Shown piece after piece: positions 15,693 through 43,783 of a DNA stretch of 64,000 nt; position 1 is the first letter of the stretch; each line of letters begins with the position of its first letter. The DNA is from Dehalococcoidia bacterium (lineage in GTDB: Bacteria > Chloroflexota > Dehalococcoidia > SM23-28-2 > HRBIN24): NCBI GenBank assembly GCA_032249735.1, contig JAVVHA010000001.1, positions 70,041 through 134,040 on the forward strand, given 5' to 3'. Made by a program: the position numbers and the translations under genes. Below the pieces are notes generated by a model. The model worked only from the letters and a program-made list of their open reading frames with translations, was not told the origin of the DNA and made no database searches.

Positions 15693-15770
15693 TGGTGGGC
15701 GGTAGAGGACTCGAACCTCTGACCTCAGCGATGTCAACGCTGCGCTCTGCCCACTGAGCTAACCGCCCAC
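15693..15770 (-). tRNA. tRNA-Val (anticodon GAC)
   Basis: The reverse complement GTGGGCGGTTAGCTCAGTGGGCAGAGCGCAGCGTTGACATCGCTGAGGTCAGAGGTTCGAGTCCTCTACCGCCCACCA folds as a cloverleaf. It has GTTCGAG in the T-loop, a UUGACAU anticodon loop and an encoded CCA. Confidence 0.9.
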
Positions 15771-29273: not shown

Positions 29274-30407
29274 TTGGTGGGTGTGGCCCTTAAGCGCCCC
29301 CGCCAACCTGGGATTCTCGATGTGGAAAGCTCGTTAGAGGAATTGGCCCTTCTGGCCCATACGGCTGGCGCCCGGGTGGTGGGCAAAGTCTTCCAGAAGC
29401 TAGACACCCCTAACCCCACCTATTACATCGGCCCTGGCAAACTGCAGGAGATCGCCTCCCTGCGTCCCTCCCTGCAGTACAGCATGGTCATCTTCGACGA
29501 CGAGCTGACTCCTAGCCAGCAGAGGAACCTGGAGCGGGCCCTAGGGGTGAAGGTCATCGACCGCACAGCCCTCATCTTGGACATCTTCGCCCAGCATGCC
29601 CGCACGCGGGAGGGCCGGCTGCAGGTGGAGCTGGCCCAGCACCAGTACCTCCTGCCTCGCTTGCGAGGTCAATGGCCGCACTTAGAGCGGCTGGGCGGCG
29701 GCATCGGCACCCGTGGCCCGGGGGAGACGCAGCTGGAGATGGACCGCCGCCTGGTGAAGCGCCGTATCCAGCAGCTAGAGCGGGAGCTGGCGAAGGTGCG
29801 GCAGCACCGGGCCCTCTACCGACGCCGGCGGAGCCGCGAAGGGCTGCCGGTGGTATCTCTGGTGGGCTATACCAATGCCGGCAAGAGCACCATTATGCGT
29901 GCCCTCTCAGGGGCGGACGTGGTGGTGGCTGACCAGCTCTTCGCCACCCTCGACCCCCTCACCCGGCGTGTCCGCCTGCCAGGTGGTGGCTGGTTCCTTC
30001 TGACTGACACGGTGGGGTTCATCAACAAGCTTCCTCCCCAGGTGGTGGCCGCCTTCCGCGCTACCCTCGAGGAGCTGGCGGAGGCCGACCTCCTCCTCCA
30101 CGTCATCGACATTACCCATCCTAACGCTGCTGAGCAGGCGGAGACGGTGGAGAGGACGCTGGCCGAGCTAGGCCTGGCCGCCAAGCCTCGCATCGCCGTC
30201 CTCAATAAGGTGGACCGTCTCATGGGGGGCGACGGTAGGGCCGTGTGGAACGAGGACGAGGTACACCAGCTCCTGCCCTATGTGCGACAGTGGCAGCCTC
30301 GGGCGGTGCTAGTCTCGGCGTTGAGGCGCTGGGGCCTGGACGAGCTCTTGCGCCAGATCGAGGAGGCCTTGGCCCAGGTGCGCCAGGAGAAGGCCAAGAC
30401 GGCCTAG
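29274..30407 (+). CDS. hflX: GTPase HflX
   Basis: It has the HflX N-domain, the G1 motif GYTNAGKST and DTVGF. Confidence 0.88.
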   Translation: MVGVALKRPRQPGILDVESSLEELALLAHTAGARVVGKVFQKLDTPNPTYYIGPGKLQEIASLRPSLQYSMVIFDDELTPSQQRNLERALGVKVIDRTALILDIFAQHARTREGRLQVELAQHQYLLPRLRGQWPHLERLGGGIGTRGPGETQLEMDRRLVKRRIQQLERELAKVRQHRALYRRRRSREGLPVVSLVGYTNAGKSTIMRALSGADVVVADQLFATLDPLTRRVRLPGGGWFLLTDTVGFINKLPPQVVAAFRATLEELAEADLLLHVIDITHPNAAEQAETVERTLAELGLAAKPRIAVLNKVDRLMGGDGRAVWNEDEVHQLLPYVRQWQPRAVLVSALRRWGLDELLRQIEEALAQVRQEKAKTA

Positions 30408-30748
30408 GTTAGCTCCACCCACTTATCGGCCCAGCGCTGAATGGCCTCCACCACCTCCTGCAGCTCCCTTCCCTTCCTGGTCAACTCATAGTGGACCAGC
30501 AGAGGGGTGACGGAGACCACCTTCTTGCGCACGATGTCCTCCGCCTCTAGCTCCTTAAGGCGCTGGGAGAGGAGCCGATCGCTGATGTTGCCGATGTAGT
30601 CACGGATCTCGGAGAACCGCCGCGGCCCCTTCATGAGGGCGCGGATGACCAGGGGCGTCCACCTCTTGCCCAATACGCGGGCCGCCCGCGCGTATCGTGG
30701 GCAAGGATATTCTAGCTGTATAGGTTGCCGCCGTGCCTTCATCTCCAC
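30404..30748 (-). CDS. HxlR-family transcriptional regulator
   Basis: 114 aa with a winged HTH (LGKRWTPLVIRALMKGPRRFSEI). It is divergent from a DoxX gene, which is the classic arrangement. Confidence 0.8.
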   Translation of the reverse strand: MEMKARRQPIQLEYPCPRYARAARVLGKRWTPLVIRALMKGPRRFSEIRDYIGNISDRLLSQRLKELEAEDIVRKKVVSVTPLLVHYELTRKGRELQEVVEAIQRWADKWVELT

Positions 30749-30852
30749 TAAATTGTAGCTACATCTCTCCGCCTCGGCAAGGGAGGTTGCTTCATCTCTA
30801 CTGGTTTGTTATGTTATTGCATGAGCTAGCAAATCAAAAGAGGAGGTCTGCC

Positions 30853-31269
30853 ATGGACGGAGTCCTCTTGGCGGGGCGCATTCTCACTGCCATCCTGTTC
30901 GTCCTCAGTGGCATAAATCACTTTGCGCAGCGACAGGCTATGAGCCAGTATACGGCCCACATGGGTGTGCCCATGGCCGAGCTGGCGGTGTTGGGCTCCG
31001 GCGCCTACATAGTGGCTGTGGGGCTGCTTTATGCCCTGGGAGTTTGGCCAGACCTGATGGCCCTTCTCTTGGCCGCCTTCTTAGTGCCGGTGGCTCTCAT
31101 CATGCACCGCTTCTGGGCCATCTCAGACCCCGCAATGAGGGCCACCCAGATGGCCCACTTCCTTAAGAACATCGCCTTAGCGGGTGCAGCTCTGGTGGCC
31201 TTTGCTTTCTTTCAGCAGTTCGGGACGGAGGTGGGGTTGACCATCACCGATCCTTTGTTCGGGGGCTAA
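30853..31269 (+). CDS. DoxX-family membrane protein
   Basis: The start was chosen at a GAGGAGG-preceded ATG (MDGVLLAGRILTAILFVLSG). It has 4 TM helices and is ~138 aa. Confidence 0.75.
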   Translation: MDGVLLAGRILTAILFVLSGINHFAQRQAMSQYTAHMGVPMAELAVLGSGAYIVAVGLLYALGVWPDLMALLLAAFLVPVALIMHRFWAISDPAMRATQMAHFLKNIALAGAALVAFAFFQQFGTEVGLTITDPLFGG

Positions 31270-31333
31270 TTATCGACGCGTCAGCCCAGTGTCTGTCGAT
31301 GGTCTAACCATCATCGATCCCTTGTTGGGGGGG
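31235..31333 (+). repeat. Degenerate direct repeat of the DoxX gene 3' end (~31 bp, ~84% identity), copies 35 bp apart
   Basis: Copy 1 is GGTTGACCATCACCGATCCTTTGTTCGGGGGC (31235-31266, encodes LTITDPLFGG*). Copy 2 is GGTCTAACCATCATCGATCCCTTGTTGGGGGGG (31301-31333, would encode LTIIDPLLGG). Confidence 0.7.
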
Positions 31334-31768
31334 CATAGTGCTCACGGGGCATCTCCTCTAGGGTTTCCTTGACCTGGTCAAAGCCCTTGAGGCGCCTCTC
31401 CTCCCATCTCCCCTCCTGCCTCTCGGCCTCCAGCTAAAGGAGCTCGGCGCAATCGAGTATGCCTTGAGCCTCATAGGGGAGCACACGTCTGCCACCTGCG
31501 CTCCCCCACGAGGCGATTAGAGAATTGATAGACGCGAAAGGGGGTGAAATACGCTTGACCCCTTGCCTCAGGGCTTGCAGCTAGACGCGTTCGCGTCAAT
31601 CGAACCAAGCTGAGGTTGAAAGCCGTGCTCGCAGCACCACCCCCTCGTTGTGAGAAGCGCCTCAGGGGAGGAGAGTTAAAGTGGGAGCAGGGTTCGGGGG
31701 GCGACATCTGCGGCCCTCTCAATGGCTGAAGGCCAGGGCAGGGGCTAGCCTCCAGCCTCGCCGCGCCC

Positions 31769-32191
31769 CTAGGATGGCTGATATCTGCCCACCGAGAACG
31801 CCAGGATCATGGGTATGTCAACGGCACCCACCGCCAGCGTCGCGATGAGAAAGGCGAGCTGGCGAGCCGGCAGCTCGTTATAGACGAACACGAACATCAG
31901 CAGCGCGGCGATGAGCCCGTAAGCCACGAGGGTCCAGCCGCCCACCGTGAAGAAGGGGCGCCAGGCGAAGTCGCGGGCCCGGGCCAGCGCGACGACGTTG
32001 ACCACCACAGCCGCCGCGGCAACGCTCAGCAGGCCGATAGCAGGCGCAAGGGGCGGCTCATTGGGCAGCGAGGCGGAGAGGTAGCTCACCCCCGAGATGG
32101 CGAGCCCCAGGGCCAACGCCCCTACCAAAGCTACCGGTGGCAGCTTTCGTTCCGGGCCGACGTCCCCTGCCGTCCGCCCGACCTCGCTCAT
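31769..32191 (-). CDS. Hypothetical polytopic membrane protein (140 aa)
   Basis: It has ~4 hydrophobic helices. Its start overlaps the stop of the upstream membrane protein by ATGA. Confidence 0.5.
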   Translation of the reverse strand: MSEVGRTAGDVGPERKLPPVALVGALALGLAISGVSYLSASLPNEPPLAPAIGLLSVAAAAVVVNVVALARARDFAWRPFFTVGGWTLVAYGLIAALLMFVFVYNELPARQLAFLIATLAVGAVDIPMILAFSVGRYQPS

Positions 32192-32802
32192 GACGCCAGC
32201 CTCGCCATGATGATCAGCGTCGCCACCTGCATGACCCCGAGGACGCCTGCACTGTACACGAACCGTCGCATTAGCCGCTCGATGAGCTCCCCGTTCGGCT
32301 CAGGCTTGCGCATCTCAAACAGCACCGCTAGATTGGTTGGCTCGTTCACTCCCAGGGCGACCATCGTCATTACACCCACGACGGCGAACGACGCCAACAC
32401 CCACGCGTGGTGCGGATGAGCGGAGTAGATGGTGCCCAGCTTGACAGCGAGCTGGAAGCCCGCCACCAGCGTGACGGTGACTACCGTCGGCATGATCAGG
32501 GACATCTGGGGCATGAGACGGGAGGTGAGCTCAAGCCTCGCCTGCATCGACATCCGCCCCAAAAGGGGGCCAATCACCAGGCCGAAGAACAGGTCGATGA
32601 TGGTCCATGCCGCCCCGAAGGCCACGTGAGCGAACTCGAGGGCCCATAGCCAGCCGCCCACAACCGCGGTGAGGAGGAAAGCCAGCGCCACCCCAACGAA
32701 CGGCAACCCGGCTAGTGGCACAATGGTGCGGGGCGGTCGTGCCAGTTCCCAAACGGCATGACCCGGCGGGATCGCAGCTGGCTCGGGCGTAGCATCTGTC
32801 AT
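32188..32802 (-). CDS. Hypothetical polytopic membrane protein (204 aa)
   Basis: It has ~5 hydrophobic helices and is first in a two-gene operon. A clean sigma70-like promoter lies directly upstream. Confidence 0.5.
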   Translation of the reverse strand: MTDATPEPAAIPPGHAVWELARPPRTIVPLAGLPFVGVALAFLLTAVVGGWLWALEFAHVAFGAAWTIIDLFFGLVIGPLLGRMSMQARLELTSRLMPQMSLIMPTVVTVTLVAGFQLAVKLGTIYSAHPHHAWVLASFAVVGVMTMVALGVNEPTNLAVLFEMRKPEPNGELIERLMRRFVYSAGVLGVMQVATLIIMARLAS

Positions 32803-41886: not shown

Positions 41887-42228
41887 GGGGACGAGTGGGT
41901 TCGACAGGGAAGGTCGGGCCCGGACAGCAGGCCGAGGTCGCCGCAGGCCTCGTTAAACAGGCGGCAAAAAGTAACTGGCGAGCGCGAGCTTGCCCTTGCC
42001 GCCTAAGGTTTAGGCGGCACGTCGCCCTGGCCTCCCCCCTGGGGGTCGGGAGCGGCGCCAGAGACCAGGGGTGCAGCCTCCTGGCGCCACCGAGGGGGGC
42101 CTAAGAGGAGGTGGCTGGCCCGTCGGCACGCAGCCGACGGCGGTACGGCGGGCGAGAAGTAAGCGTCGGCTATGCCTGTAGGTGGTCCGGGTGGGTCTTC
42201 GCCTGGACGAGGGGTTCGACTCCCCTCC
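41887..42228 (+). ncRNA. ssrA: tmRNA (SsrA), predicted tag ending GERELALAA
   Basis: The 5' GGGGACGAGUGGGUUCGACAGG pairs with the 3' CGUCUCCACCA acceptor. The T-arm is GGGGUUCGACUCCCC. The internal ORF reads ...GGC GAG CGC GAG CUU GCC CUU GCC GCC UAA. It is followed by a T8 run and lies immediately downstream of smpB. Confidence 0.85.
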
Positions 42229-42244
42229 GTCTCCACCATTTTTT

Positions 42245-43492: not shown

Positions 43493-43611
43493 GACATGCG
43501 TAAACCATGCTATCACGGCCCTTACCCTCCACCAACCCTTGACAGGCCTCCTGCGCCATGCTATATAGAAGGGCAAACCGAATATGGCGTCTCCCGGGTG
43601 CCCGCGAGGGC

Positions 43612-43745
43612 TTAATAGGGAAGTGGGGCTAGAAACCCCCGCGGCCGCGCCACTGTAGCAGGGAGCCCCGGCAGAGGCCACTGTCCCCGCAGGGATGGGA
43701 AGGCGCCGAGGGCGGTGAACTGCGAGCCAGGAGACCTGCCCGGGA
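43612..43745 (+). ncRNA. Cobalamin (AdoCbl) riboswitch
   Basis: It has AGGGAAG, GUGGGGCUAGAAACCCC, two GCCACUG motifs and a B12 box GAGCCAGGAGACCUGCC (43724-43740). It lies upstream of a btuFCD-like operon. Confidence 0.7.
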
Positions 43746-43783
43746 GAGGGGTTGCCCCCTCCTCGCGTCGGGGAGGGCACCCA

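Follow-up and report, generated by a model that had tools for sequence, protein, structure and literature searches.

Solitary fragments and scars of insertion sequences (ISs) are a general phenomenon at the synteny breakpoints of bacterial genomes. The intergenic spacer described here resembles such scars in that an intergenic region of excessive length harbors a truncated transposase pseudogene at the very point where the gene order changes relative to close relatives, and in that the end of a neighboring gene has been remodeled alongside. It differs in that about half of the scar, 263 nt, is traceable to neither the IS nor the neighboring genes. The transposase belongs to the IS256 / p-MULT 1 (Mutator-like transposase) family of ISs as defined previously (PMC3942029), whose elements are delimited at both ends by terminal inverted repeats (PMC3942029). 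The closest relative that we found is an intact IS of 1.25 kb carried by metagenome contig ERZ781397 NODE_62664 (L044). Its 36-nt imperfect terminal inverted repeats are located at 56-91 and 1275-1310 of the contig and begin with the tip GGTCGTGTCAAGA, which is common to ISTth4 of Thermus thermophilus.

The spacer lies within a 64-kb stretch of DNA, analyzed as a whole and hereafter called the window. It spans 31270-31768 (499 bp) between the DoxX gene (138 aa; 30853-31269, plus strand), recognized by a PF07681 match to the called gene, and a membrane ORF of 140 aa (31769-32191, minus strand), which overlaps the upstream 204-aa ORF by 4 nt. The initial annotation had described a gene-free region of ~440 bp starting at 31334 between convergent genes; the convergent arrangement is confirmed by the gene ends at 31269 (plus) and 31769 (minus), while the length and the left boundary had to be corrected. 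No gene is called within the spacer on ~15 public contigs carrying the locus. The 83-aa ORF reported there does exist (TTG start, 31471-31722, minus strand) but is not the sole one, as ORFs of 45 aa and 55 aa are also found. The overall GC content of the spacer is 61%, compared with a window mean of 64.8%, and the local AT-richness noted earlier is real though small, being confined to a patch at 31510-31560 with 49% GC, a content as low as which is reached by only 1.3% of 51-nt windows. The initial observation as a whole is thus partly confirmed.

The flanking genes have features of their own. The HxlR-DoxX block (30404-31269) contains 58.9% GC, in comparison with 64.8% in the window and 65-66% in the adjoining genes, which is compatible with acquisition or replacement via transfer. 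The divergent HxlR/DoxX promoter region harbors a 20-nt direct repeat, 80% identical and 53 nt apart (30737-30756 and 30790-30809), which is a candidate operator for an HxlR-type regulator and bears no relation to the GACGCG motifs discussed below. On the other side, the 204-aa ORF (32188-32802) is a local divergence hot spot or recombination tract: it differs by 2.3% between the window strain and the strain L010 (3.4% at third positions), compared with 0.4-1% in its neighbors.

A search of 5.8 billion proteins using the joined six-frame fragments of the spacer as query returned a single match, P0030 (E 1.7e-9), which is the 392-aa PF00872 (Mutator/IS256-family) transposase encoded by the IS on L044. 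By tblastn, residues 345-386 of P0030 align to 31445..31320 on the minus strand with 35 of 42 positions identical (83%). At the DNA level, 31323-31444 is identical to L044 1158-1279 at 112 of 122 positions (92%), and the similarity stops abruptly on both sides. Independently of this, blastn against plasmids showed that 31328-31444 is 72-73% identical to the 3' end of genes annotated as 'IS256-like element ISTth4 family transposase'; the 24 plasmids with this match comprise 23 from Thermus and one from Hydrogenophilus. Several more representatives of the family, like an HMM built from 101 of them, match this interval and no other. By protein and DNA similarity, the interval 31320-31445 on the minus strand is therefore a pseudogene fragment of ~125 bp that retains the last ~42 codons, i.e., the C-terminal end, of an ISTth4-like transposase. 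An in-frame TAG at 31434-31436 occupies the position where relatives have Tyr (TAC). In this family HMM, the fragment covers only positions 376-415 of 421. The weak alignment of one fragmentary representative (P0142) would carry the homology upstream to ~31505 via a GGxKV match; such an extension is possible but finds no support in the family HMM.

The fragment lacks the attributes of an intact IS256 element. In place of a PF00872 transposase of ~400 aa, it encodes ~42 codons interrupted by the TAG, and the DDE catalytic domain is absent. When both terminal repeats of L044 (IRR and IRL) were aligned to 31255-31330, the score stayed within the shuffle range, and no recognizable terminal inverted repeat was found there. 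A MAFFT alignment places GGTC at 31301-31304 opposite the IS tip. The left end of the IS was not found anywhere in the window, and without the ends no flanking target duplication can be defined. A metagenome scan for the parent IS using a conserved IS 26-mer returned only the spacer locus. Collinear partial similarity is thus combined with a disabling lesion, the TAG in place of Tyr, and, judged from its sequence, 31320-31445 is derived from the IS256 family and is not a functional member of it.

Compared with ISTth4, the fragment encodes LEAERQEGRWEERRLKGFDQVKETLEEM...YAP where the Thermus element encodes LESERQEGRWAERKLKGFSEVKEVLEKM...YAP, but it is reduced to about one-tenth of the ~400 codons and shows neither the terminal inverted repeat beginning with GGTCGTGTCAAGA in ISTth4 and L044 nor a target duplication. 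The host is not Thermus either, as the nearest named relative of the flanking genes is a Chloroflexi MAG. The IS on L044 is alike over the 122 bp of DNA and 42 aa of protein aligned above; it differs in being complete, with the 392-aa ORF and 36-nt terminal repeats, and its similarity to the window ends at L044 1158 and 1279.

To the left of the fragment, a second DoxX 3' end is preserved as a relic. The C-terminus of the present DoxX, GLTITDPLFGG (31227-31265, plus strand), contains copy 1 of a 26-nt repeat (31240-31265) and is taken to be the native tail because a distant homologue (L034) ends with ...GPAITDSLF. Beyond the stop codon, 31294-31333 on the same strand encodes DGLTIIDPLLGG and contains copy 2 (31307-31332); the repeat is found twice in the window compared with zero expected. 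The two tails (VGLTITDPLFGG* and DGLTIIDPLLGG...) are distinguished mainly by synonymous differences, GGG/GGT, TTG/CTA, CCT/CCC and GGC/GGG, along with two non-synonymous ones. As the differences are mostly synonymous, the second tail resembles the 3' terminus of a different DoxX allele or of a paralogue more than the product of a recent slip. This suggests that an older allele, of which the tail is still present, gave way to the present DoxX gene or to the entire HxlR-DoxX block. The locus shows that the 3' end of DoxX was rebuilt. Being the duplicated DoxX tail, the 26-nt repeat does not represent a target duplication of the IS.

The DoxX relic and the transposase fragment overlap in TGTTGGGGGG, a 10-nt microhomology at the distal end of the fragment. 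In the MAFFT alignment, TGTTGGGGGG is found both in the tail of DoxX (TGTTCGGGGG) and in the IS (L044, TGTTTGGGGGG). The overlap fits a microhomology-mediated deletion junction.

The right edge of the spacer, 31708-31768, consists of the old 3' end and the downstream sequence of the 140-aa gene on the minus strand, as detected by blastn and tblastn. The segment 31708-31763 is 80% identical to the contigs L013-L015 (blastn), and the 149-aa protein of L013 aligns from 32191 to 31751, through the present stop codon (tblastn). The 140-aa ORF stops nine codons earlier than its 149-aa orthologues and looks like the outcome of a recent premature stop or C-terminal truncation. In relatives whose 140-aa proteins are 83% identical, DUF72 and aldo-keto reductase genes are located downstream, the corresponding spacers are 61-183 bp long, and homology to the window ends at ~31708; more distant relatives have still other neighbors. 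These differing neighborhoods place the spacer on a lineage-specific synteny breakpoint. When orthologous spacers were sought via the 140-aa homologues, synteny was already gone at 83% identity and the spacer was found only in near-identical strains. No remnants of the downstream genes of the relatives (DUF72, aldo-keto reductase or others) were detected in the spacer, and a scan of a species-level genome collection for DoxX gave a best match of only 52% identity, which indicates that the collection lacks this species or genus.

The spacer is identical across nine contigs of one population. Assembly stops within or next to the IS fragment in six Logan contigs obtained from six different samples, at 31309 (L026), 31404 (L007, L009, L010 and L011) or 31422 (L024), while Megahit and JGI assemblies continue through. 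These contig breaks are attributed to a repeated element that breaks the de Bruijn graph. A structural variant at 31404 was rejected, as same-sample contigs from both sides overlap and match the window exactly. The IS fragment thus explains why short-read assemblies break at this spacer.

Taken together, we consider the spacer to be probably a scar without function, of an ordinary IS-associated type, at a synteny breakpoint specific to this lineage. In the order of events that we infer, an ISTth4-type IS256-family element, encoding its transposase on the minus strand, would have separated DoxX from the 204/140-aa operon. Deletions would then have taken ~1.1 kb, and with it the DDE catalytic domain and the two terminal repeats, the deletion end points being placed solely by comparison with relatives that are 92% and 72% identical. 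The distal deletion would have fused the IS interior to a DoxX gene tail via the shared TGTT(G/C)GGGGG. As the functional DoxX that now lies upstream has a tail of its own, which differs slightly, the old one would persist as a 26-40-nt 'repeat', and the remaining sequence of the spacer would evolve neutrally. Of the origins offered by the initial annotation, a decayed gene or element remnant is thereby borne out by the dead 3' piece of an IS256-family transposase. The proposal of an excised element holds insofar as a truncated IS sits at the breakpoint and the DoxX repeat is a relic tail joined to it, but not in the sense of excision proper, as there is no clean-excision footprint.

Variation between strains is consistent with neutral evolution of the spacer. 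The 98%-identical strain represented by L010 and L011 carries 5-8 SNPs and one indel over 365 nt of the spacer. This between-strain divergence of 2.2% plus the indel compares with ~1.2% at third codon positions of the neighboring genes and 2.3-4% in three other intergenic regions, and thus, in a comparison of 8 substitutions, there is no sign of purifying selection on the spacer.

The remaining 263 nt in the middle (31445-31707) have no traced source. No protein homologue was found in any of the six frames, either by Pfam on all fragments or in a second chimeric six-frame search of 31445-31726, and blastn gave no match to plasmid or phage DNA. There is no second copy in the 64-kb window, three scans of viral contigs returned nothing, and a tblastx comparison between the spacer and all other parts of the window yielded only low-complexity noise. 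This stretch contains the AT-richer patch, two of the three GACGCG sites and a hairpin at 31468-31514 with 21-nt arms and a 5-nt loop, in which the 17 Watson-Crick pairs are supplemented by three G.U pairs that can form solely on the minus strand. The hairpin is the sole one of its size in 64 kb, compared with 0.23 expected. In addition, a 45-nt direct repeat on the plus strand, 71% identical between its copies, connects the middle with the IS fragment: copy A (31412-31456) spans the proximal edge of the fragment, and copy B (31559-31603) holds the 14-nt GACGCG inverted repeat. Its local alignment score of 19.5 exceeds that of shuffled sequences (11.0 +/- 1.6) and was matched only by the best of 300 shuffles. 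We infer that the 263 nt, hairpin and GACGCG repeats included, are inert and were left behind by these same rearrangements. What speaks against the scar is that this stretch could be traced to no source and holds such an exceptional hairpin along with the GACGCG cluster, that the minus strand folds better than shuffles (see below), that the searches did not turn up the parent IS of this genome, and that the strain comparison comprises only the 8 substitutions.

These points bear on the other explanations of the spacer. The initial annotation had envisaged a small RNA gene, and if the minus strand at ~31350-31680 were transcribed into a structured non-coding RNA or, alternatively, as an extended 3' UTR of the 204/140-aa operon, the 21-bp hairpin and a GAT[AT]GACGCGAA helix would be the predicted elements of this transcript. 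The minus strand of 31345-31680 has a minimum free energy of -158.8 kcal/mol compared with -132 for shuffles (z -4.45), and the plus strand reaches z -3.4. The strand-specific G.U pairs of the hairpin agree with this orientation, and pairing is retained at three of the five predicted paired positions that carry a strain SNP (31473, 31656 and 31568), the SNP at 31473 converting a G.U pair of the hairpin into G-C. However, the other two SNPs break predicted pairs, z is only -2.3 for the 263-nt middle by itself (minus strand; plus strand, -1.1), and the long closing stem draws on transposase-fragment sequence, with an inverted-repeat score of 13.0 that is within the shuffle range. The covariance-model scan that had been suggested found no Rfam family in the spacer at gathering thresholds, at which the window yielded only the tmRNA (tag GERELALAA; 41887-42238), a cobalamin riboswitch (43579-43757) and tRNA-Val(GAC) (15693-15768) elsewhere. 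Even at E<=10, the best spacer hits were eukaryotic lncRNA or viral models with 15-18 bits against thresholds of 45-80. ARAGORN found nothing in the spacer, and neither did a scan for promoter and terminator consensus sequences. Since the substitution rate also looks neutral, a small RNA gene is unsupported; moreover, the nearest relatives lack the spacer. We therefore regard an RNA of this kind as unlikely. The more specific version, in which 31445-31707, alone or with the adjoining transposase remnant, would be a young, lineage-specific structured minus-strand RNA with the hairpin and that helix at its core, born from the IS scar downstream of the 204/140-aa membrane-protein operon, is quite unlikely. 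A further alternative is a non-autonomous MITE-like element at ~31384-31675, as the bounding 17-nt inverted repeats at 31384-31400 and 31652-31668 are 88% complementary (94% in L010), the length of ~290 bp is typical of a MITE, and there are many internal hairpins. Nevertheless, the inverted-repeat score does not exceed shuffle expectation and the left arm is part of a stretch of transposase coding sequence collinear with intact ISs. The candidate element occurs as a single copy in the 64-kb window, no more copies appeared in metagenome or viral scans, the one metagenome scan with the IS-fragment 26-mer having returned the spacer locus alone, and no target-site duplication was seen. A MITE is accordingly very unlikely.

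The palindromes that drew attention to the spacer were suggested as a possible docking site for a regulator. All three were placed correctly by the initial annotation, but the perfect 8-bp palindrome GACGCGTC (31275-31282), 6 nt past the DoxX stop codon, falls outside the interval that it had delimited. The others are the 14-nt inverted repeat GACGCGTTCGCGTC (31584-31597), of the 6-N2-6 type, and the half-site TAGACGCG at 31529-31536, which the motif scan also located at 31582-31589. Another inverted pair, GATAGACGCGAA and TTCGCGTCAATC (31527-31538 and 31590-31601), is separated by 51 nt and encloses GACGCGTTCGCGTC. If these inverted repeats were putative operators, for example of the adjacent HxlR-type regulator, their clustering would be accounted for: five GACGCG motifs within 330 bp occurred in none of 150 first-order Markov simulations (four occurred in 4%), and TAGACGCG, present twice in the spacer, is found three times in the window, compared with 0.8 expected. 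Conversely, GACGCG shows no overall enrichment in the window (31 found, 29.8 expected), perfect 8-bp palindromes such as GACGCGTC are commonplace (4.3 per kb), and 22 inverted repeats of the 6-N2-6 type are present in 64 kb. Both flanking genes terminate at the spacer, which leaves no promoter to control and contains no promoter consensus, and the HxlR/DoxX divergent promoter region (30749-30852) has different repeats. As GACGCGTTCGCGTC lies within copy B of the 45-nt duplication, its placement may stem from duplication and not from selection. A SNP breaks GACGCGTTCGCGTC in L010, so that the palindromes vary even within the species complex. A conserved function of the GACGCG palindromes is thus unsupported, as is the docking site, and we rate operators at this position as highly improbable. 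The spacer might instead encode a small protein such as the 83-aa ORF, whose frame is indeed open. Yet long chance ORFs are expected at 65% GC, its sequence is of low complexity, it is uncalled on all public contigs, and it has no homologue among 5.8 billion proteins or in Pfam; this explanation is extremely improbable.

The scar at the breakpoint thus remains the preferred explanation, and the interpretation offered by the initial annotation is partly supported. A mysterious-looking spacer of 0.5 kb with palindromes is accounted for by a truncated IS256-family element and a duplicated gene tail at a change of gene order. IS scars at breakpoints are of an ordinary kind; a new biological question would arise only if expression of the 263 nt were demonstrated. 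In annotations, 31320-31445 deserves a label as the pseudogene fragment of a transposase. The spacer testifies to a recent rearrangement in a lineage that is uncultured, Chloroflexi-like and probably thermophilic, and suggests that this lineage exchanges ISs with Thermus-type mobile elements.
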